From the IMG/VR virus record IMGVR_UViG_3300033153_006865, positions 1,035-65,034 of that record: a stretch of 64,000 nucleotides of DNA; one strand, written 5' to 3'. Positions 1 through 43,280 of this stretch are shown here, in pieces; position 1 is the first letter of the stretch, and every line of letters starts with the position of its first letter. This DNA comes from a virus (lineage: Duplodnaviria; Heunggongvirae; Uroviricota; Caudoviricetes). The notes below the pieces were generated by a model. That model did not search any database, had not been told where the DNA came from, and was given only the letters and a program-made list of their open reading frames with translations. A program made the translations under genes and the position numbers.

Positions 1-2
1 AT

Positions 3-284
3 TTGGTCGAGTATCCACCTGAACCTGGTGGAAAACGAAATCACCCAGACCATGAGGGTTATATCTCAATGTCTCCAAAAGATGTTTTTGATAAATACTA
101 TAGAAAATCAGGATCCTTTTATGATAGATTAGTAATTGAACATCTCGATTTATCTGAAAAGATAAACAAATTGTACGGAGCTCTGAAGGGAGATAAAGTC
201 CCCGAAGATCAGTTTGAAATCCTTGAACGCCAACTTGAGGCAATGGGGGATTATCAATTCATCCTCAAAGAAAGATTAAACTAA
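3..284 (+). CDS. hypothetical protein (5'-truncated at window edge)
   Basis: ORF open to the window start; no recognisable motifs. Confidence 0.35.
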   Translation: MVEYPPEPGGKRNHPDHEGYISMSPKDVFDKYYRKSGSFYDRLVIEHLDLSEKINKLYGALKGDKVPEDQFEILERQLEAMGDYQFILKERLN

Positions 285-365
285 TAGATGAAGCCTCGGA
301 TTATCCCGGGGCTTTTCCGTATGTAATAGAAATAAAGTTACTGTTTTCTTGTTTTTCCGGATTTA

Positions 366-566
366 ATGTTTTACATTCGCCGTATGTTTAATATACCAAC
401 AGAGGAAGAAATGATAGTGATCCGGGAAGAGGAGGGGCGAATAACTAGGCTGGAGGTCGATAGCAAGATACTTCAACATCTCAGGGATCACGTTATGACA
501 TCCGATGTTGTAAAGACATATATCGATAAGAATAGAAAAAGATTAAACAAAAAAGAGGGGATATGA
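366..566 (+). CDS. hypothetical small protein
   Basis: 66-aa ORF whose stop overlaps the DHFR start (ATGA overlap). Confidence 0.3.
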   Translation: MFYIRRMFNIPTEEEMIVIREEEGRITRLEVDSKILQHLRDHVMTSDVVKTYIDKNRKRLNKKEGI

Positions 567-1081
567 GAACGAACTTAATAGTGGCAACCGGAATCAATGG
601 GGAAATTGGAAAAGATAATGATCTCCTATGGAAGAAGCAGCGTGCTGATATGGCAATGTTCAAAACATTGACTAATGGTGCAACTGTTGTGATGGGGAGA
701 AACACCTGGGAGTCTATCCCTGAGAAGTATAGACCACTGCCGAATAGGATTAATATCGTTGTTTCTACAACACTTAAAAATATTGAGGGTGCAATCGTAG
801 TAGCCTCGATAGAAGGGGCAATTGACAGAGCGAAAGAGGTCAATACTACCGAATTATGGTTCATGGGTGGGGAACGAATCTACGAAGAAGCAATTAGAAT
901 GTGCGATCGTCTGTCAATTACTATGATACATAAGGAGTTCCCAGACGCAGATGTCTTCCTTGAAGAAGCAATCAACCCAACAGAATTTGGATTCGAATTA
1001 GTATCATCATCATCAAAGTTTTCAGCAGATGATGGAAATGAGCATGATTACACATTTGAAATGTGGGAGAAAGTAATATAA
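563..1081 (+). CDS. folA: dihydrofolate reductase
   Basis: 172 aa with N-terminal LIVA..NG.IG.DN.LLW and VVMGRNTWESIP...RPLPNR.NIVVS, the classic DHFR fold signature. Confidence 0.9.
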   Translation: MRTNLIVATGINGEIGKDNDLLWKKQRADMAMFKTLTNGATVVMGRNTWESIPEKYRPLPNRINIVVSTTLKNIEGAIVVASIEGAIDRAKEVNTTELWFMGGERIYEEAIRMCDRLSITMIHKEFPDADVFLEEAINPTEFGFELVSSSSKFSADDGNEHDYTFEMWEKVI

Positions 1082-1113
1082 AGTAAAAACGTTTAAACTA
1101 AAACTTAAGAGAT

Positions 1114-1479
1114 ATGAAAAAATTTGTTACAATACTTCTGGTACTTATTGGGTCTATATCATTTGGACAAGTGAATATGGATGTTATTATTGAGTCTGGA
1201 GATACTATAGTCCACAAGGATTTAATAATGTTGGCTCCACGCCTTGATACATCTTCAAATGTTTTAACAATGGAACATTTCTTTGAGGGCGGTTCAACAA
1301 TTACTGCTAAGTACTCGTTAAAAAACGAAGCCGAGGTAGGGGAATCTTTAGTCTTACTAGCTGAGAATAGTACAGGTAACTTGGTATACATTATAATCAG
1401 CAGTAATGGAAAGGCGATAAGAGTTGCAGCTCCAGATATGTCGTATGTCCAATACAATGGAAAAGGCATCATTTGGTAA
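1114..1479 (+). CDS. secreted hypothetical protein
   Basis: N-terminal signal peptide MKKFVTILLVLIGSISFGQ. Confidence 0.5.
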   Translation: MKKFVTILLVLIGSISFGQVNMDVIIESGDTIVHKDLIMLAPRLDTSSNVLTMEHFFEGGSTITAKYSLKNEAEVGESLVLLAENSTGNLVYIIISSNGKAIRVAAPDMSYVQYNGKGIIW

Positions 1480-1501
1480 TATAATTCTAATTAAGGACCA
1501 A

Positions 1502-2035
1502 ATGGAATCTAAGAAAAAGTTGAATAGAATTGGTAGGATAATGACCTACCTTCTACGACACAACCCAAAACAAGGACAACTGGATATGTCAAACCAAGGA
1601 TGGGTTCCGGTATCCCAACTTAAGAAGTCATTAAAGATAAATCAAGATGACCTAGATTATATTGTTTCAAACGATAATAATGGCAGATTTTCATTTTACT
1701 CAAACAGGGGAATGGTACGAGCAAATCAAGGTCACAGCCTCCCCTTTGTAAAAATAAAGTATGATAAGTTTCTCCCAACGGGACCTTTGTATCATGGGAC
1801 TGCAACAAAAAATATTAGCCCTATCCTACGGGGCGGTATTGAAAAGTTGAATCGTACACATGTACATTTATCTCATGATAGGGAGACAGCCACTACTGTG
1901 GGTAGTAGACATGGAGCTCCACTAACCTTGAAGATAGATGCAGTACAAATGCACAAAGACGGGGTTGAGATTTTTATCAGCGAAAACAATGTTGTTTTAA
2001 CAGAGTATGTTGATCCAAAATATATTGTACTATAA
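1502..2035 (+). CDS. RNA 2'-phosphotransferase Tpt1/KptA family
   Basis: Motifs RIGRIMTYLLRHNP...GWVPV, RANQGHS and HGT...VHLS match the KptA/Tpt1 family. Start taken at the internal ATG 1502 to avoid overlap with the upstream gene. Confidence 0.75.
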   Translation: MESKKKLNRIGRIMTYLLRHNPKQGQLDMSNQGWVPVSQLKKSLKINQDDLDYIVSNDNNGRFSFYSNRGMVRANQGHSLPFVKIKYDKFLPTGPLYHGTATKNISPILRGGIEKLNRTHVHLSHDRETATTVGSRHGAPLTLKIDAVQMHKDGVEIFISENNVVLTEYVDPKYIVL

Positions 2036-2048
2036 AAAACACGAAACT

Positions 2049-2156
2049 ATGAGTTACCAAAAATGTCCAATTTGTTGTGGGTCAGGGAGGGAGAGTATAA
2101 TAAATGGGGGCTCAGTTCCATGCCCAACCTGTAACGGCTCGTCAATAATAGATTAG
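2049..2156 (+). CDS. small zinc-ribbon protein (35 aa, below ORF-track cutoff)
   Basis: MSYQKCPICCGSGRE...PCPTCNG with two CxxC pairs; fills an intergenic gap. Confidence 0.3.
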   Translation: MSYQKCPICCGSGRESIINGGSVPCPTCNGSSIID

Positions 2157-2194
2157 GTAAAGATCTACTTAAAATAAGTAGAGGTGGATTTTCA

Positions 2195-2326
2195 ATGACA
2201 GGGACTTACGCTGAGCTGGTCCAATATTTTAAAACTACAGGATACGAAAAGGTAAGGGTTTCCACTATTGTAAATGCAGTAACAAGAAAAATAAATATTT
2301 ATAAACATAAAATAGAAAAACTATGA
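2195..2326 (+). CDS. hypothetical small protein (43 aa)
   Basis: ORF whose stop overlaps the start of the next gene (ATGA). Confidence 0.25.
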   Translation: MTGTYAELVQYFKTTGYEKVRVSTIVNAVTRKINIYKHKIEKL

Positions 2327-3138
2327 GTCGTTATTTCCTGGATACAGAGTTCCATGAATATCCTAAGAAAAGGCTATTCGGAAAAGCAATTAATACTATA
2401 GATCTCATTTCTATTGGAATGGTGTCTGAAGATGGACGTGAATACTATGCCATCTCAAAAGACTTTAACCTAAAGGATGCTTGGAATAGCTGGCAACCAA
2501 AATCACAAAGAGTTAGTGATACTAATTTCATCACAATTAAAGAATATTGGCTTAGAGAGAATGTGCTGTTGCCAGTATTGAAAGATTTAATGAACCTAGA
2601 GCACATTGATATGTTTGGCACCCCCATTATGGAGTGGGAATGGGAGACTATTGATACATCAATAAAAGGGATGAGCTATAGATATTTAAAAAGGTTACTG
2701 AAAAAATACGGTAAATCAAACAAAGAAATAGCTGAAGAGATAATTAAATTCACGGAGCCCAGATTAACAGGAAAAGTATTGTTAGTTGATCCTCCGATAA
2801 ACGAATATGACAACACCCCTATTGAATTCTATGCTTATTACGCTGACTATGACTGGGTGGTATTTTGCTGGCTATTTGGTAGGATGATTGATCTTCCGGA
2901 CGGTTTCCCGATGTATTGCAAAGACCTGAAACAGATTTCTGATGAGGTCTATGAAGAGAAGAAAAAGTCTTACTATGGTAACTCTAAGGAACAGGCAATA
3001 AAACATTCTGGAGTATTTTTAAATAAGATGAGCGACCATTTAGATTATCCCAGACAACAAAACGAACATAACGCATTGGATGATGCCAAATGGGATTTTG
3101 AATTATATAAATTTTTAACCGGAATAAAAACAAGATGA
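2323..3138 (+). CDS. DEDDh-family 3'-5' exonuclease
   Basis: Exo I YFLDTEF, Exo II YYADYDWVVF, Exo III HNALDDA (H-x4-D). Confidence 0.7.
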   Translation: MSRYFLDTEFHEYPKKRLFGKAINTIDLISIGMVSEDGREYYAISKDFNLKDAWNSWQPKSQRVSDTNFITIKEYWLRENVLLPVLKDLMNLEHIDMFGTPIMEWEWETIDTSIKGMSYRYLKRLLKKYGKSNKEIAEEIIKFTEPRLTGKVLLVDPPINEYDNTPIEFYAYYADYDWVVFCWLFGRMIDLPDGFPMYCKDLKQISDEVYEEKKKSYYGNSKEQAIKHSGVFLNKMSDHLDYPRQQNEHNALDDAKWDFELYKFLTGIKTR

Positions 3139-3332
3139 AATTGAGAAGATTGTGGATAGAGTTTCTACTTTGGAGACTGTCAAACCAGTACACCCAATTG
3201 GATATCGACCTTGTGTGTGGAACACGTGGGATGAGTAAGTCATTAGACTACTCGGCCTACAAAGTCAGAAAAGATAAACTGAGTAAGAAACATATCATTT
3301 TATTAGAACGTTTAAAAGATCTCCAACAATAA
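3135..3332 (+). CDS. hypothetical protein
   Basis: 65-aa ORF, start and stop overlap neighbouring genes. Confidence 0.3.
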   Translation: MKLRRLWIEFLLWRLSNQYTQLDIDLVCGTRGMSKSLDYSAYKVRKDKLSKKHIILLERLKDLQQ

Positions 3333-3844
3333 TGGAAAATAAATATTACACACCGGAGGAAGAAGAATTCCATGTAGGACTTGAGTACGAATATAGACAT
3401 ATTCTATGGTTGGTGACGGCAACCATAACGAAACACCCCTTTTATAATGATGACCGATGTGTTGAGCATGGCGAGTTAAAACAAAAAGATGGACTTAGGA
3501 CTTTCTATGCTTGGATAACTCAAACGTTTACCGAGAGGGGTGTTTTAAATAAAGGGGAATATCGAGTTAAACGCCTCGACAGAGAAGATATAGAGAGTTT
3601 GGGGTGGGAGTGCATTGAAACTGAAAAATCTCCATTCACACATAATTTACTACATAAATTCTACAAGAACAAGGAAGAAGGATTTAATACAGGTTCAAAT
3701 TACTACATAGACTTAATGGATTCAAATATAGTAAAAATTACTATAGATATCTACGGTGAGTATGGCACTACCATCCAGCTAATGGAATTCATTATCAAGA
3801 ATAAATCCGAACTTAAACGTATCCTCAAACAAATAGGAATATGA
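3332..3844 (+). CDS. hypothetical protein
   Basis: 170-aa ORF in an operon-like array. Confidence 0.45.
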   Translation: MENKYYTPEEEEFHVGLEYEYRHILWLVTATITKHPFYNDDRCVEHGELKQKDGLRTFYAWITQTFTERGVLNKGEYRVKRLDREDIESLGWECIETEKSPFTHNLLHKFYKNKEEGFNTGSNYYIDLMDSNIVKITIDIYGEYGTTIQLMEFIIKNKSELKRILKQIGI

Positions 3845-4146
3845 GCAAGGAAGTAATATTTGGATTTGAAGACAGCCTCGGTAAAAGAATAGGTTATTCT
3901 GTATGGTGCCCCGGATGTGAGAGATATCATGGAATATGGGTGTATAGCCCAAATCCAACTACTGGAGCAAAATGGAAGTTCAACGGGAATCTGGTAAAAC
4001 CTACATTCAGTCCCAGTTTACATGTTGAGCGAGGAACAAAGAGTACCTGCCACAGTTACATCCGGGACGGCAACTGGGAGTTTCTTCCTGACTGCCACCA
4101 CAAACTAAAGGGCCAGACAGTCCCACTTGTTCCAATAAGAGATTAA
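3841..4146 (+). CDS. Cys/His-rich putative zinc-binding protein
   Basis: CPGCERYHG...CHSY...DCHH conserved Cys/His pattern. Confidence 0.45.
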   Translation: MSKEVIFGFEDSLGKRIGYSVWCPGCERYHGIWVYSPNPTTGAKWKFNGNLVKPTFSPSLHVERGTKSTCHSYIRDGNWEFLPDCHHKLKGQTVPLVPIRD

Positions 4147-4166
4147 TTTAAAACCAAATAAAAACT

Positions 4167-4376
4167 ATGAGTAATAAAAAACAAACAGCAAAAGTAGTAT
4201 GTAAGTTTAACAACGGAGAGAAAATGGAAATAGCCATCTTGGATGAAGGAGCTGATTTTTCAATGTCTATCAAACAACCAAACCCAAATCCAGAAATGTT
4301 TGAAACAACTTCCTCCATCACATTCACCTCTCCTGGTGGAGAAACATTTGAAATAAGTGTAGAGTTATCTGATTAA
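4167..4376 (+). CDS. hypothetical protein
   Basis: 69-aa ORF followed by a terminator. Confidence 0.4.
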   Translation: MSNKKQTAKVVCKFNNGEKMEIAILDEGADFSMSIKQPNPNPEMFETTSSITFTSPGGETFEISVELSD

Positions 4377-4420
4377 ATACAGATAATCATTAGTATCTGC
4401 TCTACAGCAGATAATTCACC

Positions 4421-4452
4421 AATCCCCATTACATAACGTTTTGGGGATTTTT
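4421..4452 (+). terminator. intrinsic terminator hairpin
   Basis: aatcccca-(13 nt loop)-tggggatt followed by ttt; preceded by a second hairpin tatctgct/agcagata at 4393..4412. Confidence 0.6.
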
Positions 4453-4524
4453 AAACAAAATTAAGTTCTATATGGAAAACAAAGAATTAATACATTACGG
4501 TTTTGGATCAGAATATCTCCCAAA

Positions 4525-5514
4525 ATGGGTACGAAGCAAGCGTTAAGAGAGATATACCAAAACTTTCTAGACTTTGGTCAATATAATGAAGAGATGATTA
4601 ACTTGACTGAATCAGGGACGCCTGATAGAGTGTTAGTCAAATTGTCTAGTGAATACAATCCGGAGAATTTAGAATTCCTGAGGATAGGCAATTCAAATAA
4701 AAACGGGAATTCAAGTGCCATTGGAAAACACGGAGAAGGATTAAAGATGGCTTTCCTTATTCTGCTCAGACAAGGGGATGGGATAAGGATAACGACTGAC
4801 AAATACATTATTGAGCCCTGTTTCTACGATTCCGGGAGTATTGGAAAGTGTTTTGGGGTACAATATACCCACCACGAAGAAGAGCATAAGTTCACTTTAG
4901 AATTTGAGTGCCCTAAATCTGACTTCTTGGATTTTCACCAGGGTATTATAGGGGAGGATGATTACCTATTTACACTTCCTGGTCATGGAAGTGTGGTCAA
5001 TAAGGAGAAGGGAAATATTTATTCAGGAGGACTGTTTGTATGCAACTTAAAGAATTTCACCCAATCCTACGACATCCCACCTAACTATCTCCCGTTGGAC
5101 AGAGATAGGGAAGTCCCAAGATCATTTGATGTGGCCTACCACAGCTCCAAAGTGGCTGAGGCATTCGACCAGTGGGATATCGAAGATATTGGAGCAAATG
5201 ACACATCGTATATAGACAAGGTTCCAGCAAGGGTAAAAGAGAAGATCCGCCCTGTTCGGGTCGGTAACAGTGTGGAATTTGTAGCCAAGGATAAAAACAA
5301 TCAAGATAAAGTAATTACTAACTCCGCCATCACAGATGTTTTAAAACGGGATAATTTTTTCCAAAAAGCAATTAAGAAGATTAAGCATGCCATTATTAAA
5401 AATCTAGGTTTGTATGATCTATTGGTCTCATTTCAAGAGAAGCATGTGCATAGCCAAGAAGCTATTGAGGATTTTAAAGATATCCTTGCTATGGTCAAAA
5501 AGTCTAGTAAGTAA
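4525..5514 (+). CDS. GHKL (Hsp90/His-kinase/MutL-type) ATPase-like protein
   Basis: N-box-like EIYQNFLDFG and G-box-like IGNSNKNG...GKHGEGLKMAF spaced as in a Bergerat fold. Confidence 0.5.
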   Translation: MGTKQALREIYQNFLDFGQYNEEMINLTESGTPDRVLVKLSSEYNPENLEFLRIGNSNKNGNSSAIGKHGEGLKMAFLILLRQGDGIRITTDKYIIEPCFYDSGSIGKCFGVQYTHHEEEHKFTLEFECPKSDFLDFHQGIIGEDDYLFTLPGHGSVVNKEKGNIYSGGLFVCNLKNFTQSYDIPPNYLPLDRDREVPRSFDVAYHSSKVAEAFDQWDIEDIGANDTSYIDKVPARVKEKIRPVRVGNSVEFVAKDKNNQDKVITNSAITDVLKRDNFFQKAIKKIKHAIIKNLGLYDLLVSFQEKHVHSQEAIEDFKDILAMVKKSSK

Positions 5515-5532
5515 CTGGTATCTGTTGTGGGC

Positions 5533-5596
5533 CTGCATAATCACGTTATGCAGATATTATAAGATTCTCCTTACATAATGTTTGGGGGATTTTTGT
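5533..5596 (+). terminator. terminator region (hairpin plus GGGGATTTTT element)
   Basis: ctgcataa-tcacg-ttatgcag hairpin, then ttacataatgtttgggggattttt, which repeats the element at 4431..4452. Confidence 0.4.
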
Positions 5597-5606
5597 AAAG
5601 TAAACT

Positions 5607-6155
5607 ATGAAAAGTAAAAGATTAATATACGCATTAAAATGCCCCATCACTGATGAGATACACTACATTGGTAAAACAATACAGGGGATGACCAAGCCAC
5701 TACAACATCTGAGTAAAAGTCATTCTGATAAAGTAAAAGCTTGGGTAGGAGAGTTAAAAGAACTGGCACATGCCCCAAAGATTCAAATATTAGAAAACCT
5801 GAGTAGTGTTGATGACCTAGATAGTAGAGAAAGATATTGGATTAGAAAGAGTGTGGAGAATGGAGATTTACTTCTTAACGATTGTCTGGTATCCCCAATT
5901 ACCATAAGCAGGTCCCTTGAGAAATTGATGGGGAGCGATAGAGGTAGGGAGATGGAAGTGATCGGGAAATTTGTTAAGGAGAGAAGGAAATTAACCGGAC
6001 TCTCTCAAGAGAGGTTTGCAGATATGACAGGCATAGCCTTAACGGTTGTCCGTAAAATTGAACAAGGTAAATCAAATCTCAGTCTTAAAAGCCTTTTACA
6101 AACCCTCGAGATGTTTGGATGTACCATCGGTATACAGAAAATCAATAGGGATTAA
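5607..6155 (+). CDS. GIY-YIG endonuclease with C-terminal XRE-type HTH
   Basis: LIYALKCP...HYIGKT (GIY/YIG), RERYWIRK and LLN, plus C-terminal LSQERFADMTGIALTVVRKIEQGK helix-turn-helix. Confidence 0.7.
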   Translation: MKSKRLIYALKCPITDEIHYIGKTIQGMTKPLQHLSKSHSDKVKAWVGELKELAHAPKIQILENLSSVDDLDSRERYWIRKSVENGDLLLNDCLVSPITISRSLEKLMGSDRGREMEVIGKFVKERRKLTGLSQERFADMTGIALTVVRKIEQGKSNLSLKSLLQTLEMFGCTIGIQKINRD

Positions 6156-6333
6156 AATTAGGCTCGTCAGGAGACCTTCTCCCAATCCACGTATAAACAG
6201 ACCACATATTGTCTAAAGAGCTACCCTAATAGCCAGAATGGGCTAAATATTGTCTGTATAGACACTATGGTAGCAAGTTATCATCTTTTAATTAGGTTAG
6301 GTTTAAATATGTTATACTTTTATAAAAAATCTT

Positions 6334-6669
6334 ATGATAAGAATCTATAATAATAGAATATTCATCCCAACTTTTACAGAACATGTAAAATGGCTGATTG
6401 AGAACTCAACCCACGAGTTGTACATAGTCTATTTAAACAGTAAGAACCTGGAGAAGGAGGAAGTTAATAAGCATAACTATATTCGACTATGTAAGGAAAT
6501 TGACAGGTGCAGGGAAAAACAAATTGGGGGAGATCAAATATTTATGGTGGAGGATATAGGGGAACTAACAATGACCCATACAAGAAACTCTTATCAAGAG
6601 GTGGGTATAAATTACAGCTCCTCTATTGAAGATTTTAGGCATCTCCGGTTTGGGAGTAAAGACTATTGA
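6334..6669 (+). CDS. hypothetical protein
   Basis: 111-aa ORF. Confidence 0.4.
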   Translation: MIRIYNNRIFIPTFTEHVKWLIENSTHELYIVYLNSKNLEKEEVNKHNYIRLCKEIDRCREKQIGGDQIFMVEDIGELTMTHTRNSYQEVGINYSSSIEDFRHLRFGSKDY

Positions 6670-6872: not shown

Positions 6873-6931
6873 TAGTAAACACATATTGCATAATAAACTA
6901 GTATGGGCTATTATGCAATATGTGTTTACTA
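6873..6931. repeat. perfect 21-23 bp inverted repeat with 13-nt spacer
   Basis: gtaaacacatattgcataata ... tattatgcaatatgtgtttac, immediately 3' of the convergent HNH gene. Confidence 0.85.
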
Positions 6932-6933
6932 CT

Positions 6934-7431
6934 TCAATATGACATGAAGTAATCACCCATTTCAATCTCTACTTCGGTTCTTCTGTCCTGGGCCTGCTGT
7001 AAAGTATCAAACACTTCTCGTATTACATTTTTTATGCGTAGAGTATATCTACTCCCTCTTTTCTCAATGCAATAAGTACCATCTTTGAATCTATCAGTAT
7101 CCTTCAGCCTATTGAGTCTGTGGGATATAATTTGGGAATTCACTAATCTGTTGTCTTCCTTAATTTTATTTATATGATCGGTAACATACCGTCTACCATC
7201 TGGATGAGACCTATGTGGGAGAAACGTGTTTGTAACCATATTATGGATAAACATATATCCCTTATGGGTATCAACTGTTTTATACCCATCCTTATGTACT
7301 CTTCCAACTAAATATCTCCCAGTAGATATATTCTTAATCCTACCTAAAGTACTTACTAGGTATACATTATCTAGCTTTGGTACAAAATCCCATTCTTCCA
7401 TAATGTAAATATAAGGATTATTTTTAAGCAC
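6934..7431 (-). CDS. HNH homing endonuclease (NUMOD4/HNH_3-type, I-HmuI-like)
   Basis: WDFVP..YLVSTLGRIKN..TGR...GY..V-H..V...F....V.HIN.IK.DN...N; opposite strand to neighbours. Confidence 0.7.
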   Translation of the reverse strand: MLKNNPYIYIMEEWDFVPKLDNVYLVSTLGRIKNISTGRYLVGRVHKDGYKTVDTHKGYMFIHNMVTNTFLPHRSHPDGRRYVTDHINKIKEDNRLVNSQIISHRLNRLKDTDRFKDGTYCIEKRGSRYTLRIKNVIREVFDTLQQAQDRRTEVEIEMGDYFMSY

Positions 7432-8778
7432 TCTTATTTATTTTACAAATATCCCGTGTAAAAATAAGAAATTGGGCTGTTTCTATGCTGTTTGGACAGT
7501 TTATATGTTGGGGAGATATATGTCTGTAACCCTTACTACTATTGGGCTGTATAAATTATATGCAAATAATTAGCAAGTATGAAAGTGAGATTGGGTGAAT
7601 TTTTATATGTTTAGTACCACCTACACCCAAACTCCCCCACCCTATTAGAGTTTTGCCCCAACCCCCTATACATTTGAAAAACCAACTTTTCAAAATTTCA
7701 TCCTACAAAACGGAACCACCTATTTTAGTATTTATATTTTATACTCTCTTAATATCTATATACTACCCATAAAGTATCTGAATACTAACCTATCTACTAC
7801 ACACACATAACTATAAAACTACCTACTATTTATGTACATATATACTATAATAATATATTAAATTTAATTTAATTGCGTTTTTATATTGTTTATCCAACTA
7901 ATTGTTGTATATTAGCATAAGCGAATGAGGGGAACGTCCCTATTAACATTTACTAAGTTCTTTTTATATTTTTACCCAATAAGCAAATAGCATACTAGGA
8001 CACAATAGACCAGTCGTCCCCATTGTGAGGACGTGAAATTAATGGTTTGGAAATCGACAAAGCTTTACAGTGTTGAGGGTAAAAATATTAAAAGATTATT
8101 TTAATTCTATACCGTTTTAATTAGGTTTATTGAATTAAAAGAATTATATTTACATAAGCGTTACAAAGGTAACCATTTAGTAAAATTGACATAGGGATAA
8201 CAATATTTTTTTAATAATAACTTGCAAATTATTTGCAGTTCTTATTTATTTTCCTTATATTTGTTAAGAGTTACAAAGGTGGCTTTAATAACATTAGTTC
8301 ATTGACATACCGATTAATCACTTAAGTAGTGACGGGATTAACATTAATACTTTAAGCTTTATTAATATGGGTGCAACGCTCATTTAAGTTTGACGAACTT
8401 ACGAAATGTAAGTTATTATATTAATGCCTTTCTTTATACGGTGGTTCTATTCCTTGAAAGGTCAATTAAGAGTCGTAAGGCTTGAAAGTTGGGGGTTTGG
8501 TTAAGTGTGGCGTAATGTCCAAGGTTTGATAATAAAGAACTGATAGGTAGCCAGGGGTTGAATTCCCTTCATTAGACGTATAGAGAAGACTATACGCAAC
8601 AAAATTATATAATCTGTGCCCTTGTAGTGGTGCTAAAGGATTGAAAGCAAAACTACAAAGCTTTATTGAACGTCATGTTTAATAAAGCCCTAAGTCGTTA
8701 GACAGAATAATATTTGGCAAAGTGTCAAAATCCGTATAGGGTTGAACAAAGAAAATTTTACAAATTAATATAATTGTT
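7432..8778. other. 1.35 kb ORF-free structured region (candidate origin, early-promoter hub or large ncRNA)
   Basis: No ORF of 60 aa or more on either strand. C-rich tracts 7620..7670, extreme AT tract 7700..7900, many local hairpins 7920..8720, repeated GTTACAAAGGT...TTGACATA modules. Confidence 0.5.
8187..8225 (+). promoter_or_regulatory. sigma70-like promoter candidate
   Basis: TTGACA, 17-nt spacer, T/A-rich -10; preceded by GTTACAAAGGT at 8160. A second copy sits at 8271 (GTTACAAAGGT) and 8304 (TTGACA). Confidence 0.3.
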
Positions 8779-9186
8779 ATGAAAAATTCTAAAAATAGTG
8801 CATCGAACGAAAATAAATTAACTGGGCAACAAAAATTAGAGCTTAGAATAGCTAATTTAAAAGAAAGGTCTAAGAAAGAGGGGCTAAACCTTAATGAAAC
8901 TAAGATATTAGCCAATGCTGAGGAAAAAATTGACTGTAAGAGTGCAAGTCGTGTATATAAAGTAATGGACGCTTTGAATAAAACTAAAAAGGGATCTTTA
9001 TTGGGTGGTTCTAAGTTCCCTAGCTTCAAAACGTTCAAAGGATTGCTACCAGAGGGTAAAACATTGTTTAGTGCATGGGATGGGTTCGGAGTTTTGGTAA
9101 AATGTAACAAAAAGGCTGCTATGAAGTCGAAAGTAGACGCTCAAGGCGGTGTTATAGTGGGGAATAATGAATTATTATCTGCATAG
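8779..9186 (+). CDS. hypothetical protein (first gene after the ORF-free region)
   Basis: 135-aa Lys-rich ORF. Confidence 0.5.
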   Translation: MKNSKNSASNENKLTGQQKLELRIANLKERSKKEGLNLNETKILANAEEKIDCKSASRVYKVMDALNKTKKGSLLGGSKFPSFKTFKGLLPEGKTLFSAWDGFGVLVKCNKKAAMKSKVDAQGGVIVGNNELLSA

Positions 9187-12604: not shown

Positions 12605-13351
12605 ATGGAGTATTTAGAACAAGCAAAAAGTTTTTTAGAAACTACGAACACAACGTTTAAGGCAGAATATTTAGAACACGGTCTTCATTTCGAAGGTGAC
12701 AAAGAAAAAAGAGCTATTTACAAGATAACACTTTCAAATAAAGAAGGTGAGTTTTGTTTTGATTTTGGGCAAAGTATAGAGGACAGCTTTAAAAAAGAAA
12801 TGGGACCACAAAGGGATATATTGGAGACTATAAATGTTTATGCGGGGCTAGAGACAGCTTCTTCTTCATGTGGTCATTCCTTTAAGCTTAAAAAAGAGGA
12901 GGGGTTTAATCTTAGTGATGTCCGTTTTCAGGAATTAGCTTCTGATTTAGAAACAGAATACTACAGAAAAATAAGTAATAGGAATGAAAAATTACTTGAA
13001 AAGTTTAATAAAGGTGAAATTAGTCGTAATCTAATGAACGCAAAAAAAGACGGAGGAAATCTCGGATCTGGTGCTTTTACCCAATGCATTCAAAATGCAA
13101 TTAAAAGAGAATTAAACAAAGAAGTTGAAACAGCTGGTGAGTTCTTGCAAATTACACCGACTGAGTATGACGTACTCACTTGTTTAACTAAGTATGATCC
13201 AGAAACGTTTGAAGACTTTTGTAGTGAGTTTGGATATGATGAAGACAGTAGAAAGGCTGAAAAGATATACAAAGCAGTTGTAAACGAATACAATAATGTT
13301 GCGATGCTGTGGAATGACTCAGAAATTGAATTGTTAAGTGAGATACAATAA
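12605..13351 (+). CDS. hypothetical protein
   Basis: 248-aa ORF. Confidence 0.5.
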   Translation: MEYLEQAKSFLETTNTTFKAEYLEHGLHFEGDKEKRAIYKITLSNKEGEFCFDFGQSIEDSFKKEMGPQRDILETINVYAGLETASSSCGHSFKLKKEEGFNLSDVRFQELASDLETEYYRKISNRNEKLLEKFNKGEISRNLMNAKKDGGNLGSGAFTQCIQNAIKRELNKEVETAGEFLQITPTEYDVLTCLTKYDPETFEDFCSEFGYDEDSRKAEKIYKAVVNEYNNVAMLWNDSEIELLSEIQ

Positions 13352-13432
13352 CAGTCGTTTGAGCGACTCAAAACTTCATTAAGCTCAAAGCGTCCCACTT
13401 AGGTGGGGGTTGAACCATTAATAATCACTATC

Positions 13433-13648
13433 ATGAGCAAATACTTTGAAATATCAGGACATTGGAAAGATGACAAAACCGAGTTTGAAGGCTTAATAGT
13501 CAAAGAATTTGATGATGTCGACGAAGATACAGACGATTTAATTTTCTTCTACGGAATGGGTGAGAAGGATTTAAAAGAAGCCGTGGAGCATAAAGAAGAA
13601 ACGGCATTGGAGTTTGTTATAGAATCTTACAAAGAAACCAACCTTTAA
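13433..13648 (+). CDS. acidic hypothetical protein
   Basis: Start chosen at the ATG inside TAATCACTATCATG (13422..13435). Confidence 0.45.
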   Translation: MSKYFEISGHWKDDKTEFEGLIVKEFDDVDEDTDDLIFFYGMGEKDLKEAVEHKEETALEFVIESYKETNL

Positions 13649-21949: not shown

Positions 21950-22627
21950 ATGTCAAACTACAAACCTCTGCCAAAAGAAATAAATGGACTAAAGATTATT
22001 AAAGATTTAGGCAGAATATACCCTACCGAGAAGTCAAAGAGAAAGGAGAGGTTCGCAATTCTATTGTGTAGGTGTGGAGAAGAGTTTAGGGCCAGAACAG
22101 ATAGTATTAAAAATGGGAGTACAACATCTTGTGGATGTGTACAAAGGTCATTAACCGCTGAGAGGTCTATTACACATAACTTATCCAAACACCCACTATA
22201 CAAGACGTGGGGGAATATGAAGAGGCGTTGCTACAATAAAAATAGAGAAGATTATGATAACTACGGAGGCCGGGGTATTAAGGTCTGTGACAGGTGGTTA
22301 GACTCTTTTCCAAACTTCCTGTCTGATATGGGGGTAAAACCTTCTAAATCCCACTCTCTTGACAGAAAAGAAAATGACGGGGATTACACCCCTGAAAATT
22401 GTAGATGGGCCACAAAAGAAGAGCAGACACTTAACCAACGTATAATGAAAACAAACAAGACAGATTTTGTTGGTATATCCTTTAGTGGAGGTAAACTTAG
22501 ATCGGTTATTTACTACAAAGAGAGGCAAACCCACCTGGGAACATTTGACACTCCTGAAGAAGCTGCAAGAGTAAGAGATAAATATATTATTGACAATAAT
22601 TTACCCCATAAACTATCAAAACTATGA
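21950..22627 (+). CDS. AP2-domain homing endonuclease
   Basis: LYKTWGNMKRRCYN...YGGRGIKVCDRW..FPNFLSDMG nuclease module plus C-terminal AP2 (GISFSGGKLRSVIYYK..HLGTFDTPEEAARVRD). Confidence 0.7.
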   Translation: MSNYKPLPKEINGLKIIKDLGRIYPTEKSKRKERFAILLCRCGEEFRARTDSIKNGSTTSCGCVQRSLTAERSITHNLSKHPLYKTWGNMKRRCYNKNREDYDNYGGRGIKVCDRWLDSFPNFLSDMGVKPSKSHSLDRKENDGDYTPENCRWATKEEQTLNQRIMKTNKTDFVGISFSGGKLRSVIYYKERQTHLGTFDTPEEAARVRDKYIIDNNLPHKLSKL

Positions 22628-25386: not shown

Positions 25387-26805
25387 ATGAAGAAGATATT
25401 ACTAGAAATTAAAGCAGCCCGAGGAAGTGTTAAAAAGACAGTGTTGGAAAAATATAAAGGTAGTGATACTCTAATGAGGATTTTATACCTGGCTACCTCG
25501 AATAAAATAACTTTTGGGATTAAAAAAATTCCCGACTATGTGCGATTGCAAACCACTATTACACTTCCTGAGGCCCTTGAAGAACTAAAGCCTTTAATTA
25601 GTAGAGAGGTTACTGGAGACGCTGCGATTGGACAGTTAACACATGTCTTAGGAATGTTGAATGAGGATGATGCATTTGTTCTTGAAAGGATAATTGATAA
25701 AAATTTACAAATCGGCCTCCAGGCAAATTCTATTAATAAAGTAATACCTGGACTGATAGAGAAAACTTCTTACCAAGGCTGTCAACCCTTTTCAAAAAAG
25801 AAGATATTAAAGATATTAGAAAACGGCCCCGCGTTGCTGCAGACTAAGGAAGATGGGTTTTTCTTAGACTGTTTAGTAGGTGGAGATTTTGTAGGACTTT
25901 CTACAAGGTCTGGAGAAATTATAAACCTTGGAGGGGCTGCATTTGTGAATGAACTTGAAAAAATACAAGTAAAAGAACCTTTTGTATTAAATGGCGAACT
26001 TTTACTTAAATCTATCCCTAAGAGATCTATTGCAAATGGTATTCTTTTATCAGTATCTGATATTTTAACCAAAGCTGGAGAACGGACTCAAAAGGAGACA
26101 GATAAGAAGATTGAAAAATTACTAAAAGATATTCCAGAAGAGTTGGGATGGGCAGCCTTAAAAGACATCCTAGATGATACTATGTATTCAATATGGGATC
26201 TTCTTACTAAGAAAGCCTATGATGAAGAATATTCTGAGGTGAGGGCTGATGAACGTTTCCTTCACGCACGTGCTTTAATAGAAAAGTTTGAATTGAAGAG
26301 TACTAGATTAGTAGATTGGAAAATTGTCACCACTTACTCAGAGGCTATGGAGTATTTCCAACAGAAGCTTTCAGAAGGTAAAGAAGGTGCAGTAATCAAA
26401 CAAAAAGATAGTCCGTGGAGGTCTGGTAAACATTCGAACAATATAAAACTGAAGTTAGAGATGGAGTCTGAAATGATTATTGTTGGATTCCAGTTCGGAA
26501 AAACCGGAACCAAAAATGAGAATGTATATTCATCACTACATGTAGAATCAAGTGACGGAATAGTCACTGCCACTCCATCTGGTATGACAGAAAAATTAAT
26601 GGACGAGATAACAGCAGATCCAGAAAAATACAGAGGGGCTATTGTAACAGTAAAGTGCTATGGCCTGTCAGAGAATAAGGAAGGGGAAAAGTCAATGATG
26701 TCACCTAGTGTTGTTGAGATTAGAAGAGATAGAACTGAAGCTGATAACTACGAAGAAATTTTAGCTATAGAAAATGCGGCAAAAGGCTTGCAAGTCTCAG
26801 TATAA
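25387..26805 (+). CDS. ATP-dependent DNA ligase (T4-type)
   Basis: N-terminal domain matches T4 DNA ligase (KILLEI...G..KK..LEKYKG...L.R.LYLA; LTG.AAI..LT). Motif I TKEDG, NGELLL, EGAVIK, KLKLE. Confidence 0.85.
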   Translation: MKKILLEIKAARGSVKKTVLEKYKGSDTLMRILYLATSNKITFGIKKIPDYVRLQTTITLPEALEELKPLISREVTGDAAIGQLTHVLGMLNEDDAFVLERIIDKNLQIGLQANSINKVIPGLIEKTSYQGCQPFSKKKILKILENGPALLQTKEDGFFLDCLVGGDFVGLSTRSGEIINLGGAAFVNELEKIQVKEPFVLNGELLLKSIPKRSIANGILLSVSDILTKAGERTQKETDKKIEKLLKDIPEELGWAALKDILDDTMYSIWDLLTKKAYDEEYSEVRADERFLHARALIEKFELKSTRLVDWKIVTTYSEAMEYFQQKLSEGKEGAVIKQKDSPWRSGKHSNNIKLKLEMESEMIIVGFQFGKTGTKNENVYSSLHVESSDGIVTATPSGMTEKLMDEITADPEKYRGAIVTVKCYGLSENKEGEKSMMSPSVVEIRRDRTEADNYEEILAIENAAKGLQVSV

Positions 26806-27241: not shown

Positions 27242-27918
27242 ATGAGGGAGTTGAAACCATTACCAAAAGAGATAAACGGTATTAAGGTTGTTAAAGATTA
27301 TGGGACTATCTTCCCTACCGAGACTTCTAAAGAAAGGAAGAGGTATGCTACATTTTTATGTAGGTGTGGTGCTGAGTTTAAGGTCAGAGTCTCTAGTGTG
27401 AAGAATGGTGACACTACCTCTTGTGGCTGTTTAAAGACCAAATTATTTTTGAGACAATTGTCAAACATGGGTTACATAGGCACCCTCTATACAATACGTG
27501 GTCTAACATGAAGAAGAGATGTTATAATATAACCAATAAGGACTACAAACATTATGGAGAAAGAGGAGTAGAGGTTTGTGACAGGTGGTCAAACTCTTTC
27601 CCAAATTTTCTAGAGGATATGGGTGAAAAACCATCACAAAAACACTCTCTTGATAGAGAAGATAATGATGGAGATTACACACCAGAAAATTGTAGGTGGG
27701 CAACAAAAACTCAGCAAAATATTAATCAAAGGGTACGTAAAAATGCCTCTGGTTATACAGGAGTTGTTGTTAACCGTGGAAAATGGAAATCCCGTGTATC
27801 TTATAAGGGCAAAGTAAATCACATCGGCACTTACGACACTATAGAAGAGGCAGTAAAATCGAGGAATAGTTACATAATCAAAAATAATTTACCACACAAA
27901 ATTCAAGAATATGGATGA
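27242..27918 (+). pseudogene. AP2-domain homing endonuclease, frameshifted paralog of 21950..22627
   Basis: Same architecture, split across two frames (27242..27511 and 27421..27918) with the break near the T5 run at 27446..27450. Confidence 0.6.
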
Positions 27919-34845: not shown

Positions 34846-35424
34846 ATGCACTTAAAATCAGTCTGTATTATAAAAGATGATCACTGTTATTTTGACAAAG
34901 GGTTTGAAATAAAAGATCTACAAAATATCACATTATTAGTAGGTGACCAAGGCTGTGGTAAGTCTTCTTTGTTGGGAATGCTAAGGAAGAATGAGGGATT
35001 GTCTGTAAAAATGTACCACAATAATACTGTCAGTAGTATGTTTTTTGACTTTGAGCATATGAATCCAAGGGTTATACCAAGCCACGAACTTGCAAATCCA
35101 GACGGGTCCAGTCGATTATTTGGTGTTGGGGAGAAACTACTCTCTAAATGGAAATCACATGGAGAGACTTTAAAATACTACTCAGTAGACAATTTAAGGA
35201 GGATGAAAGATTCAGTGGTATTATTTGATGAGCCCGAGAGTTCCCTTTCATTAAGAAGTCAGTACGAGCTGATAAAATCATGTAATATTGCGATAGAGAA
35301 TAATTGCCAGTTAATTATAGCCACTCACTGTCTTCCTTTAATAGCATCACAAGAACAAGTGTATTCAATGGAACACAAGGAATGGATGAAATCAAAAGAT
35401 TTTATAAAAACTCAAAAACTTTAG
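34846..35424 (+). CDS. ABC/SMC-type ATPase (AAA_21-like), minimal
   Basis: Walker A GDQGCGKSS, Walker B VVLFDEPESSLS, switch ATH. Confidence 0.55.
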   Translation: MHLKSVCIIKDDHCYFDKGFEIKDLQNITLLVGDQGCGKSSLLGMLRKNEGLSVKMYHNNTVSSMFFDFEHMNPRVIPSHELANPDGSSRLFGVGEKLLSKWKSHGETLKYYSVDNLRRMKDSVVLFDEPESSLSLRSQYELIKSCNIAIENNCQLIIATHCLPLIASQEQVYSMEHKEWMKSKDFIKTQKL

Positions 35425-37009: not shown

Positions 37010-37198
37010 TTGTATATTAGCGAAATGAAAGACGTACCGGAAAAAGATAGAAGATATTCCCTCAGAATGACACTTATGGGAAAGCAAGAGTTTTTAATAA
37101 ATTCTAAATCCTACCCGTATTGCCTAATGGTAAGAAAAGATAAAGAAAACCTAATCCAATTTAAAGATGCCTCGTTCGAAATTGTGAGGGTTTTATAA
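37010..37198 (+). CDS. hypothetical protein
   Basis: 62-aa ORF. Confidence 0.3.
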   Translation: MYISEMKDVPEKDRRYSLRMTLMGKQEFLINSKSYPYCLMVRKDKENLIQFKDASFEIVRVL

Positions 37199-38286
37199 TG
37201 GCTAGGAAAAAGACACATAAAGAATTTGTAGACCAACTAAGGGAGGTTCAACCTAATCTGACTGTTATAGGAGAGTATGCCAAGGATAGTAAAAAATTAC
37301 TTGTTAAAGATCATCTTGGGATAAGATACTCAACCTCTCCATCTAATCTATTACAGGGTAATAAGCCCTCTGCTGTGTTAGCGGTAGACAAAGACAATTG
37401 GTTTAGAGTAAGAAGTAAACAAATTCACGGAGAATCTTATGATCACTCTAGATCAAAATACTTAGGAGACTCTGTTAAAGTAGAGATTATCTGTCTAAGA
37501 CATGGGTCTTTTTGGCAGACTCCTGCATCACATCTAAAAGGTAGGGGATGTATGGAATGTGGGCATGTAGCTACAGCTAAAAGTAAAAGAAAAACTACAG
37601 ATGAGTTTATTTTAGAGGCGGAGAATATTCATCAGGGAGTCTATGACTACTCTAAGTCACAATATATTAACTCAAAGACAAAAATAAATATAATTTGTCC
37701 CAGTCACGGAGTATTTACACAGGTTCCAAACGATCACCTAAATGGTCACGGGTGCACTTCGTGCGCCTATGCGTCAAATAGTAAGACAACAGAACAATTT
37801 ATATACAAGGCGAATAAAATACATAAGGGTACATACTCCTACTATGATACTGTGTACACTTCATCTGCCTCTGAAGTAGTTATAACTTGTAAAATACATG
37901 GGGCTTTTAAACAAAAACCAAAGGTGCACCTAGAAGGACATGGGTGTAAGAAATGCGCCTCATACAACCATCCTGGATCCTATGCGTCTGTATGTAAATA
38001 TACCCCTGACCATTTGGTACCATTGTACATAATTAAATGTTCCTACAAGGACGAAGTTTTTTACAAAATTGGGCTGTCAATTGACTGTAGGACCAGATTT
38101 TATGGGATACCTTATGAAATAGAACTCCTTAAAATCATTGAAGGTCCTATAGGTAGGACCTATCCATTAGAGCAATCTCTAAAAAAGAAATACGCAATAT
38201 ATAAATATATACCTCAAAAGTATTTTGGTGGGTACACAGAGTGCTTTTCAGTAAACCCACTAAAATACTTTAAAGAATTAAAATAA
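37198..38286 (+). CDS. T5orf172 (GIY-YIG-like) endonuclease with triplicated zinc-ribbon repeats
   Basis: Three HG.F.Q.P..HL.G.GC..C repeats, then C-terminal YIIKC..YKIGLSID...E......F.GGYTECF T5orf172 signature. Paralog of 53758..54855. Confidence 0.7.
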   Translation: MARKKTHKEFVDQLREVQPNLTVIGEYAKDSKKLLVKDHLGIRYSTSPSNLLQGNKPSAVLAVDKDNWFRVRSKQIHGESYDHSRSKYLGDSVKVEIICLRHGSFWQTPASHLKGRGCMECGHVATAKSKRKTTDEFILEAENIHQGVYDYSKSQYINSKTKINIICPSHGVFTQVPNDHLNGHGCTSCAYASNSKTTEQFIYKANKIHKGTYSYYDTVYTSSASEVVITCKIHGAFKQKPKVHLEGHGCKKCASYNHPGSYASVCKYTPDHLVPLYIIKCSYKDEVFYKIGLSIDCRTRFYGIPYEIELLKIIEGPIGRTYPLEQSLKKKYAIYKYIPQKYFGGYTECFSVNPLKYFKELK

Positions 38287-42369: not shown

Positions 42370-42759
42370 ATGGAAAATGAATTTTACGTGGGTCAGAAAA
42401 TATGTTGTGTTAATTCTGTGTTTGACCACAACCAGAATTTCTTCGACACATACTTTCAAGAGTTGCCTGAGGAGAATATAACTTACACAGTTAGAGAAGT
42501 GGATGGAGAGAGTGTTCTTCTGGAGGAAATTATCAATAAACCTCGTCCATTTAGTCTGGGAGGGACGGTAGTTCAGTTAGAACCCGGTTTCAACACAAAG
42601 AGATTTGTCCCACTTGATACAAAAGAAGAAAGTGATTCGTATGCTGATAGCATACTTAAAAACCTAGAGGAAGGATTTACTGAAGTTAGAGAATTAACTG
42701 GTGTAGAGGACGAAGGCTACAAAACTGATTTTTCACCTGAGAGATTTGATAAAGTATGA
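42370..42759 (+). CDS. hypothetical protein
   Basis: Internal start MENEFY chosen; the ORF track starts at 42322. Confidence 0.4.
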   Translation: MENEFYVGQKICCVNSVFDHNQNFFDTYFQELPEENITYTVREVDGESVLLEEIINKPRPFSLGGTVVQLEPGFNTKRFVPLDTKEESDSYADSILKNLEEGFTEVRELTGVEDEGYKTDFSPERFDKV

Positions 42760-43280
42760 GCAGTAGAATTTATGATCTTAATCGTAGGAGGTCTTTAATA
42801 GGCAAAGCTAAAGTAATATACGATAGCCAAGTTAAGTCTACTAAGAAGAAAGGCCATCCCCCAATGGAGTATAATAAAAAAGAGTTTGTAGACTGGCTAA
42901 TATCACAACCGGAATATTTAAAACTTCACAAAGCTTGGGTGAAATCTGGATATGATATGTGGCTGGCCCCATCTTGTGACCGTCTCGATGATTACTTAGG
43001 ATACACTTTTAAGAATCTCCGAATAGTAACTTGGAAGGTTAATTATGACAAAGGTAATAATGATACAAAATCAGGTATTAATAATAAACGTAATAAGGCA
43101 GTAGTAAAATTAAGATTGAATCAAGAATTTGTTGAAGAACTCCACTCCTTAGCTGAGGCACTTAGAGTGACAGGAGTGCGTAATATAGGTCAGGTCTGTA
43201 GTGGCAACAGACCATTAGCTGGGGGTTTTAAATGGATGTTTAAAGAAGATTACGAAAAATTAAAAATAGATAAGAAATGA
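42756..43280 (+). CDS. degenerate-HNH homing-endonuclease-like protein with NUMOD-type C-terminal motif
   Basis: APSCDRLDDYLGY..NLRIVTWKVN (HNH-like fold) and C-terminal IGQVCSGNRPLAGGFKW. Paralog of 60653..61285. Confidence 0.55.
   Translation: MSSRIYDLNRRRSLIGKAKVIYDSQVKSTKKKGHPPMEYNKKEFVDWLISQPEYLKLHKAWVKSGYDMWLAPSCDRLDDYLGYTFKNLRIVTWKVNYDKGNNDTKSGINNKRNKAVVKLRLNQEFVEELHSLAEALRVTGVRNIGQVCSGNRPLAGGFKWMFKEDYEKLKIDKK

Follow-up and report, generated by a model that had tools for sequence, protein, structure and literature searches.

A full-length Tpt1/KptA RNA 2'-phosphotransferase gene without RNA ligase or kinase partners in a crAss-like phage genome

We have identified a gene for a Tpt1/KptA RNA 2'-phosphotransferase at positions 1502..2035 (plus strand) of a 64,000-nucleotide stretch of caudoviricete DNA (IMG/VR record IMGVR_UViG_3300033153_006865, positions 1,035 to 65,034 of that record; hereafter the window), which, judged by its sequence, is full-length and well conserved. 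Sequence and structural model together predict a catalytically competent and apparently active enzyme. In this phage it is an orphan, without RNA ligase or kinase partners. We give a probability of about one half to the reading that the protein is the clean-up step in an RNA repair that relies on healing and sealing enzymes of the host. Tpt1 in phages is already documented; what is particular to this case is its presence in a distant crAss-like lineage with a 130-kb genome, at no more than 50% identity to any other protein, in a complete genome without partner enzymes. On present evidence this is one more example of a catalogued phage gene family, and the locus points to no new mechanism.

The gene, its catalytic residues and the two lobes of its product lie on the window as follows:

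1502..2035, plus strand: Tpt1/KptA RNA 2'-phosphotransferase gene (open reading frame (ORF), PF01885, PHROG 5470, 7kw8, AlphaFold2 model, Foldseek)
1556..1561, plus strand: CGA-CAC, Arg19-His20, aligned as members 1 and 2 of the catalytic tetrad (Arg16-His17 of RslTpt1, the Runella slithyformis enzyme; 7kw8 alignment, invariant in homologue alignments)
1685..1687, plus strand: AGA, Arg62, aligned as tetrad member 3 (RslTpt1 Arg64, yeast Arg71; 7kw8 'kkRfaF' against phage 'ngRFSF', invariant)
1853..1855, plus strand: CGT, Arg118, aligned as tetrad member 4 (RslTpt1 Arg119; 7kw8 alignment, invariant)
1502..1756, plus strand: predicted N-terminal lobe, about residues 1-85, winged-helix-like and RNA-binding, carrying R19, H20 and R62 (AlphaFold2 model and superposition; boundary approximate)
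1769..2032, plus strand: predicted C-terminal lobe, about residues 90-177, of the NAD+-binding ADP-ribosyltransferase (ART) type, with H98-G99-T100 and R118-x-x-V121-H122 (invariant columns in 53-55 homologues, fold match; boundary approximate)

The reading frame runs from an ATG at 1502 to a TAA at 2033-2035 (177 codons, that is, 177 amino acids plus stop) and is identical to the Joint Genome Institute (JGI) gene call on the source contig. Its ATG lies 22 nucleotides past the stop of the upstream ORF 1114..1479 and is preceded, 5 nucleotides away, by AAGGA; in the alignment, the N-termini of homologues fall within a few residues of it. Longer readings from TTG 1424 or ATG 1445 were rejected, as they would run into that upstream ORF.

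Family membership is supported by several collections. Pfam PF01885 (PTS_2-RNA, Tpt1/KptA) matches with 142.2 bits against a cut-off of 26 (E = 2.4e-41), aligning protein residues 8-168 with profile positions 4-176 of 177, and PHROG 5470 ('RNA 2'-phosphotransferase') matches with E = 1.8e-48. A sequence search of the PDB returned 13 distinct Tpt1/KptA sequences, headed by 7kw8 from Runella slithyformis (E = 2.1e-37). Four NCBIfam equivalog models (NF002014, NF002013, NF002015 and NF002012) also match, none reaching its cut-off; the best, NF002014, gives 173.6 bits against an equivalog cut-off of 239 (E = 3.7e-51). Scores below these cut-offs indicate a diverged member rather than another family, and leave membership of PF01885 unaffected; by sequence, the protein is too far from the curated cellular seeds for automatic equivalog naming. 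No other protein in a collection of 5.8 billion exceeds 50% identity to it, and among named homologues the nearest come from Bacteroidota (Saprospiraceae, Chryseobacterium, Deminuibacter and Flavobacteriaceae, with Runella the nearest within the PDB). A preliminary description of this DNA, made from the letters alone, had placed a phage-encoded Tpt1/KptA at 1502-2035; Pfam, PHROG, PDB and the structural model all bear it out, and its coordinates were exact.

Mutagenesis has defined an essential tetrad in this family, R23/H24/R71/R138 in yeast Tpt1, R21/H22/R69/R125 in E. coli KptA and R16/H17/R64/R119 in RslTpt1 (PMC6097658). In a pairwise alignment with 7kw8, phage R19, H20, R62 and R118 fall on RslTpt1 R16, H17, R64 and R119, and all four are invariant in each of three alignments of 12, 55 and 53 homologues. 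Further invariant columns in the same alignments include H98-G99-T100, V121-H122, G77-H78 and other core positions. The arginine of the conspicuous 'RANQGHS' motif, R73, was considered as the tetrad arginine and set aside; that residue is R62 of 'RFSF'. Loss of the R-H-R-R tetrad, which the preliminary description had named as a ground for abandoning its assignment, is not seen, as all four residues are present on alignment.

The fold agrees with this assignment. An AlphaFold2 model built from the 53-sequence alignment has a mean predicted local distance difference test score (pLDDT) of 96.5 and a predicted template-modelling score (pTM) of 0.85. Foldseek matched it against the PDB to TkoKptA (9ldg; template-modelling (TM) score 0.90, root-mean-square deviation 1.4 Å), to Clostridium thermocellum Tpt1 (6e3a/6ede; TM 0.87-0.88) and to the Pyrococcus horikoshii and Aeropyrum pernix enzymes (TM 0.86-0.89), with deviations of 1.4-1.9 Å across the four. 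In the model, the N-terminal lobe comprises helices at residues 4-19, 22-25, 37-44 and 48-56 and strands at 63-65 and 71-74, and the fold of the C-terminal lobe matches that of NAD+-bound Tpt1/KptA structures (8tfz, 9ld6). Thus, the modelled protein has the two-lobed architecture of its family, a winged-helix RNA lobe joined to an ART-type NAD+ lobe.

The genome around this gene was rebuilt by walking JGI metagenome contig Ga0366832_1000080 (126,544 bp) and merging it with the window, with zero mismatches. The result is complete, circular and 130,264 bp long, and the same Tpt1 protein also occurs on a second assembly of 130,346 bp. We searched nearly all ORFs of at least 50 amino acids in this genome against Pfam, and those lacking a Pfam match against PHROGs; giant structural proteins were covered by JGI precomputed Pfam matches. 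These scans found no Rnl1, Rnl2 or Trl1-type ligase and no RtcB, no polynucleotide kinase, no 2H, LigT or other cyclic phosphodiesterase, no Macro, NADAR or Nudix domain and no NAD+ salvage gene. Neither the window nor the remaining genome contains a tRNA gene, and motif scans of all ORFs (Walker A, the two-HxT/S pattern of 2H enzymes, KxDG) gave no convincing additional candidate. The same tools recovered RtcB, RlaP, CCA-adding enzyme, Thg1 and SpoU methylase beside Tpt1 in other viral contigs, which served as a positive control.

Three proteins that superficially resemble repair enzymes were examined and rejected. The sole KxDG ligase, at 25387..26805, is a T4-type DNA ligase (PHROG 114, E = 1e-87; T4 DNA ligase 6dt1, E = 5e-23) rather than an RNA ligase. 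A 536-amino-acid metallophosphoesterase-like protein encoded outside the window, considered as an end-healing enzyme, belongs to PHROG 1745 'DNA transfer protein' (E = 4e-125). The guanylate-kinase-like protein, considered as a polynucleotide kinase, scores above the cut-off of Pfam Guanylate_kin and is grouped with DHFR- and ThyA-type nucleotide-metabolism genes. Neither a heal-and-seal system of fungal/plant type (Trl1/AtRNL plus Tpt1) nor a module of T4 or RtcB type is present in the genome. The preliminary description had suggested looking for an Rnl/Trl1-type RNA ligase and a polynucleotide kinase elsewhere in the genome, and Pfam and PHROGs reveal neither in the 130 kb; its proposal of a healing-and-sealing route encoded by the phage itself is left unsupported, as ligase, kinase, cyclic phosphodiesterase and tRNA gene are all lacking. 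Any role in RNA repair would therefore need host enzymes or phage proteins of no recognisable family.

By sequence, the phage is a distant crAss-like, Cellulophaga phi4:1-like virus. Genes for replication and nucleotide metabolism are gathered in one strand block (DHFR, thymidylate synthase, T4-type DNA ligase, DNA polymerase A, a DnaB-like helicase, a primase-polymerase, a RecA-like protein and GroEL/ES), which also carries many homing-endonuclease-like ORFs and within which the Tpt1 gene lies co-oriented. The other block carries structural genes, including giant proteins of 1.6-2.0 thousand amino acids, crAss tail ring protein 2 (PF25702) and a crAss001_48-related protein. At 34-37% identity, a capsid-like protein resembles its counterparts in Cellulophaga phages phi4:1 and phi17:2 and in gut phage csAssE-Sib. 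A G+C content of about 36%, the Bacteroidota homologues of Tpt1 and the Cellulophaga-phage-like capsid together point to a phage of a Bacteroidota host, which on this sequence evidence is probable. Megablast of window positions 1-25000 against 50,697 GenBank phage records gave no match, so that there is no close sequenced relative from which annotation could be borrowed.

Tpt1 is nonetheless no rarity among phages. With tblastn we found it in 98 of the 50,697 GenBank records, often annotated as such, in jumbo phages of Erwinia, Dickeya, Klebsiella, Serratia and Yersinia and in phages of Clostridioides, Clostridium, Bacillus and Listeria; no isolate phage of the distant crAss-like, Cellulophaga-phage-like lineage among these records gave a Tpt1 match. 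A two-pattern scan of IMG/VR yielded at least 153 contigs with Tpt1. Iyer et al. (2021, 2022) had described KptA in 'several caudoviruses' and in jumbo phages and assigned it to NAD+-dependent RNA repair (PMC7824862, PMC9503650). A literature search brought up these comparative-genomics surveys and general ADP-ribosylation papers; in it we found no experimental study of any phage Tpt1 or of Tpt1 in anti-phage defence.

To see what accompanies the gene elsewhere, we surveyed 8 kb on either side of 80 IMG/VR Tpt1 loci (labelled L below), which together hold 1,715 neighbour ORFs. When these were clustered by BLAST, no family recurred in more than 12 of the 80 loci. RtcB, RlaP, CCA-adding enzyme or Thg1 lies within 8 kb of Tpt1 in 17 loci, with RlaP in nine and Thg1 in four. 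RtcB directly adjoins Tpt1 in L024 and L051, where the RtcB stop overlaps the Tpt1 start, and is 357 nucleotides away in L073 and L074; a CCA-adding enzyme begins 3-7 nucleotides downstream of Tpt1 in L050 and L065. In these contigs the gene seems to share operons with RtcB or with a CCA-adding enzyme. RtcB makes clean junctions, and its pairing with Tpt1 thus suggests that Tpt1 there clears terminal 2'-phosphates that block RtcB, an idea that concerns phage Tpt1 generally. An RNase T-like exonuclease of a family different from that in our phage is found near Tpt1 in 7 of the 80 loci, an association that we regard as weak.

In the chemistry of this family, the RNA 2'-phosphate attacks C1'' of NAD+ and expels nicotinamide, giving an RNA-2'-phospho-ADP-ribose intermediate whose phosphate is then attacked by O2'' of the ADP-ribose; certain members can, in addition, take phosphates off 2'/3' termini or ADP-ribosylate 5'-phosphate ends (PMC6097658, PMC6573784). 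We propose that in the infected cell the phage enzyme would take 2'-phosphates, at internal junctions or at termini, off damaged or repaired RNA, and that this clean-up could keep the translation apparatus running after attack by host ribonucleases. Healing and sealing would be supplied by a Bacteroidota-type host or by phage proteins without a recognisable family. This reading, to which we assign a probability near 0.5, is based on the published model (PMC7824862, PMC9503650) and on the company that Tpt1 keeps in other phages, namely RtcB, CCA-adding enzyme and RlaP. The weakly matched anti-defence-like genes just upstream of Tpt1 offer a setting in keeping with it. The gene itself was probably captured from a Bacteroidota-type host, given that its closest named homologues are from Bacteroidota and that the capsid is related to those of Cellulophaga phages.

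Several observations weigh against a clean-up role in repair. The 130,264-bp genome encodes no RNA ligase, RtcB, polynucleotide kinase, 2H enzyme, Macro domain or tRNA, so that a repair pathway in this phage, like a ligase supplied by its host, is an assumption. No bacterial pathway producing internal RNA 2'-phosphates is known (PMC6097658, PMC6573784), and RslTpt1, the closest characterised relative, is poor at removing terminal 2'/3'-phosphates (PMC6573784). Additionally, three rounds of jackhmmer show that no neighbour of this Tpt1, the adjacent exonuclease included, recurs beside Tpt1 in the 80 IMG/VR loci, and the gene stands isolated in the nearest viral relatives (L012-L016, L092 and L094). 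The contigs closest to this protein, which are L012-L016 together with phage-like contigs of P0016 and P0086, have it among small hypothetical ORFs.

Other functions for the protein have to be considered beside RNA-repair clean-up. It could, as the preliminary description had also suggested, be mainly an NAD+-dependent ADP-ribosyltransferase that caps RNA or DNA at 5'-monophosphate ends, perhaps those of phage transcripts, of processed RNAs or of the genome, a cap that would shield ends from 5'-dependent nucleases or mark or inactivate host nucleic acids. The absence of a ligase or kinase partner fits such a stand-alone activity, the best structural matches to the model are TkoKptA complexes with 5'-phospho-ADP-ribosylated DNA (5'-p-ADPR-DNA), and 5'-phospho-ADP-ribosylation by Tpt1/KptA is established in vitro, although it is unclear, even for enzymes of cells, whether ADP-ribosylation of phosphate ends matters physiologically (PMC11833690). 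As no sequence feature marks a capping-proficient Tpt1, and the phage genome has no Macro, ARH or PARG-type eraser or other ADP-ribose-handling gene, we think capping unlikely. It seems distinctly improbable that the enzyme instead erases a 2'- or 3'-phosphate installed on RNA by the host, as a tRNA modification or as the mark of a defence toxin, restoring translation without ligase repair. KptA was reportedly described by Ohira et al. in Nature in 2022 as an eraser of tRNA 2'-phosphouridine in archaea. The chemistry requires only a phosphomonoester nucleophile, and some Tpt1 enzymes remove terminal 2'/3'-phosphates (PMC6573784). The phage also possesses HD_4 (RelA/SpoT-type hydrolase) and MazG-like proteins, and anti-defence-like genes, recognised by weak matches, lie near Tpt1. 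However, we know of no such RNA-phosphate defence or modification in Bacteroidota, no supporting gene context was found for one, and PADLOC connects Tpt1 with no known defence system, none of its families matching Tpt1 or the genes immediately around it at E <= 1e-3.

The gene might also be a moron, recently captured from a host and with little or no specific role in infection. Its spread is patchy (98 of 50,697 phage records, none of them from related Cellulophaga phages), it is isolated among unrelated small ORFs without conserved neighbours, and its closest named homologues are cellular proteins of Bacteroidota. Yet identity of no more than 50% to anything among 5.8 billion proteins indicates that the capture was not recent, the retention of all catalytic and core residues argues for purifying selection, and unrelated large phages have acquired Tpt1 repeatedly; a passive passenger therefore looks doubtful. 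Membership of the ART superfamily raises the idea that the protein is a toxin or serves host takeover by modifying host macromolecules, as T4 Alt, ModA and ModB do. Weak structural matches to DarT, PARP and diphtheria toxin, low in the Foldseek ranking, and the 'KptA/Tpt1-like toxins' suggested in the literature (PMC11833690) are in keeping with it. We consider this very improbable, because the protein is an orthodox Tpt1 throughout, with RNA-binding lobe and full tetrad, has no PADLOC match and no antitoxin-like neighbour, and belongs to a group that Iyer et al. set apart from fast-evolving conflict ARTs (PMC7824862).

An intact and maintained Tpt1 in a complete genome that lacks ligase, kinase, phosphodiesterase and tRNA nevertheless makes a ligase-independent job conceivable, whether 5'-end ADP-ribose capping or the erasing of an RNA 2'-phosphate installed by the host or its defences. 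We offer this as a long shot, which, if true, would provide the first physiological substrate for a bacterial-type Tpt1. Phages retain only genes that pay their way, and an intact Tpt1 without partner enzymes is a small, clean system in which to ask what the bacterial enzyme acts upon. What Tpt1 does in organisms that have no fungal-type tRNA ligase is acknowledged to be an open question (PMC6573784).

Immediately around Tpt1, the first sizeable gene downstream is the ORF 2323..3138, which begins 288 nucleotides beyond it and encodes an Rv2179c-like DEDDh 3'-5' exoribonuclease homologue with an insertion and with DxE, D and HxxxxD motifs (PDB 4oke, E = 9e-13; Pfam PF16473, E = 3.7e-7; PHROG 2259, E = 7e-47). 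A DEDDh exonuclease beside Tpt1 had been proposed from the letters alone, and these matches confirm it; the adjacency is not conserved and is thus no evidence of a functional link. Two mini-ORFs lie between the genes, 2049..2156 (+) and 2195..2326 (+). The former, uncalled by JGI, encodes 35 amino acids with two CxxC(x)GS motifs like those of DnaJ/anti-TRAP zinc ribbons (Pfam Anti-TRAP, E = 9e-6, below cut-off). About 1.2-1.5 kb upstream of Tpt1 are a crAss001_48-related gene (L001 8385..8783, its C-terminal part being window 3..284; PF21825, E = 5e-15; 'Sequestin' in the JGI table) and, directly ahead of it, an 80-amino-acid ORF (L001 8132..8374) whose match to the Acb2/Tad1 hairpin domain is weak and below threshold (E = 5e-4). 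These two genes may encode nucleotide-signal sponges directed against CBASS or Thoeris. Counts in a promoter and terminator scan of positions 1..6500 were no higher than in shuffled sequence.

Further downstream, 3841..4146 (+) encodes a 101-amino-acid DUF6527 protein (E = 6e-10; 'BubE' in the JGI table) and 4525..5514 (+) a protein of 329 amino acids with no Pfam match and with PHROG 6077 (unknown function, E = 3e-36), whose motifs 'EIYQNFLD' and 'GKHGEGLK' look like those of the GHKL/Bergerat ATPase fold. A perfect 23-nucleotide inverted repeat with a 13-nucleotide loop at 6873..6931, between the converging ORFs 6334..6669 (+) and 6934..7401 (-), is probably a bidirectional terminator hairpin. 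Between the minus-strand NUMOD4 gene and the next plus-strand genes there is an A+T-rich region of about 1.35 kb (7430..8780) with no ORF above 45 amino acids on either strand, no JGI gene call and no Rfam match. Imperfect inverted repeats occur in it at several places (7959-7977 and 8077-8095, for example, are 95% complementary), and the region may serve as a replication origin or in regulation, or encode an unrecognised RNA.

A Pistol self-cleaving ribozyme (RF02679) occupies 13353..13414 (+), within the 81-nucleotide spacer between ORFs 12605..13351 and 13433..13648, and matches over the full model length (61.5 bits against a gathering threshold of 34.5, E = 9e-9). It is the only Rfam match in the window, and there is none in the roughly 66 kb of genome beyond it. 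Its cleavage would cut an early or middle transcript to leave 2',3'-cyclic phosphate and 5'-OH ends. A link to Tpt1 was considered and discarded, as a self-cleavage 2',3'-cyclic phosphate is no Tpt1 substrate and the genome encodes no cyclic phosphodiesterase.

The load of mobile nucleases in this genome, with its many homing-endonuclease-like ORFs, is unusually high, and includes the following:

37198..38286, plus strand, and 53758..54855, minus strand: DUF723 paralogues, one in each strand block, of about 360 amino acids with repeated CxxC/HG motifs (PHROG 681 'endonuclease', E = 6e-63)
6934..7401, minus strand: NUMOD4 endonuclease
5607..6155: GIY-YIG plus HTH homing-endonuclease-like ORF
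21950..22627 and 27508..27918: HNH-like ORFs
42756..43280 and 60653..61285: endonuclease VII-like ORFs

Additionally, 34846..35424 (+) encodes a 192-amino-acid mini ABC-type ATPase with the Walker A motif GDQGCGKS, whose top PADLOC matches are the ATPase components PARIS AriA (E = 5e-12) and Septu PtuA; no nuclease partner is seen alongside, and the protein could act as a decoy or inhibitor or be what remains of such a system. Two adjacent genes that closely precede thymidylate synthase, 43461..43958 (+) and 44184..44669 (+), encode the HD_4 (RelA/SpoT-type hydrolase) and the MazG/PRA-PH-like pyrophosphohydrolase, which are candidate hydrolases of alarmones or non-canonical nucleotides.

Fungal and plant tRNA splicing (Trl1/AtRNL ligase-kinase-cyclic phosphodiesterase plus Tpt1) employs the same family for its last step, with the same chemistry, whereas this genome lacks a Trl1-type ligase, kinase or cyclic phosphodiesterase domain and any tRNA, intron-containing or not. 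In the published phage model (PMC7824862, PMC9503650), KptA is coupled to RNA ligases and 2H enzymes of the phage, both absent here. Viral contigs in which Tpt1 stands with RtcB (L024, L051, L073 and L074) or with a CCA-adding enzyme (L050 and L065) encode homologous proteins 37-40% identical to ours, but there the gene belongs to an evident RNA-repair module, often with RlaP, Thg1 or SpoU methylase nearby, of a kind that this phage is without.

The KptA proteins of jumbo and other large phages (Dickeya JA29 gp263, many from Erwinia amylovora, Klebsiella and Serratia phages, and kptA of Clostridioides phiCD211) have Enterobacterales or Firmicutes as hosts and reside in genomes mostly of 250-300 kb, in contrast to the 130-kb crAss-like, Cellulophaga-phage-like genome described here. 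They are likewise phage-borne, single-domain and of similar length, at 28-45% identity, and JA29 gp263, annotated like other jumbo-phage copies as an RNA 2'-phosphotransferase, also sits amid hypothetical ORFs. The gene for RslTpt1 (7kw8) differs in that it is one of a cellular cluster of four, the other three encoding HD-Pnk, an ATP-dependent ligase-like protein and MTase-HIT, none of which the phage genome has. The two proteins themselves are alike along their whole length, at about 39% identity, with 178 amino acids in RslTpt1 against 177 in the phage enzyme and with the same essential residues.

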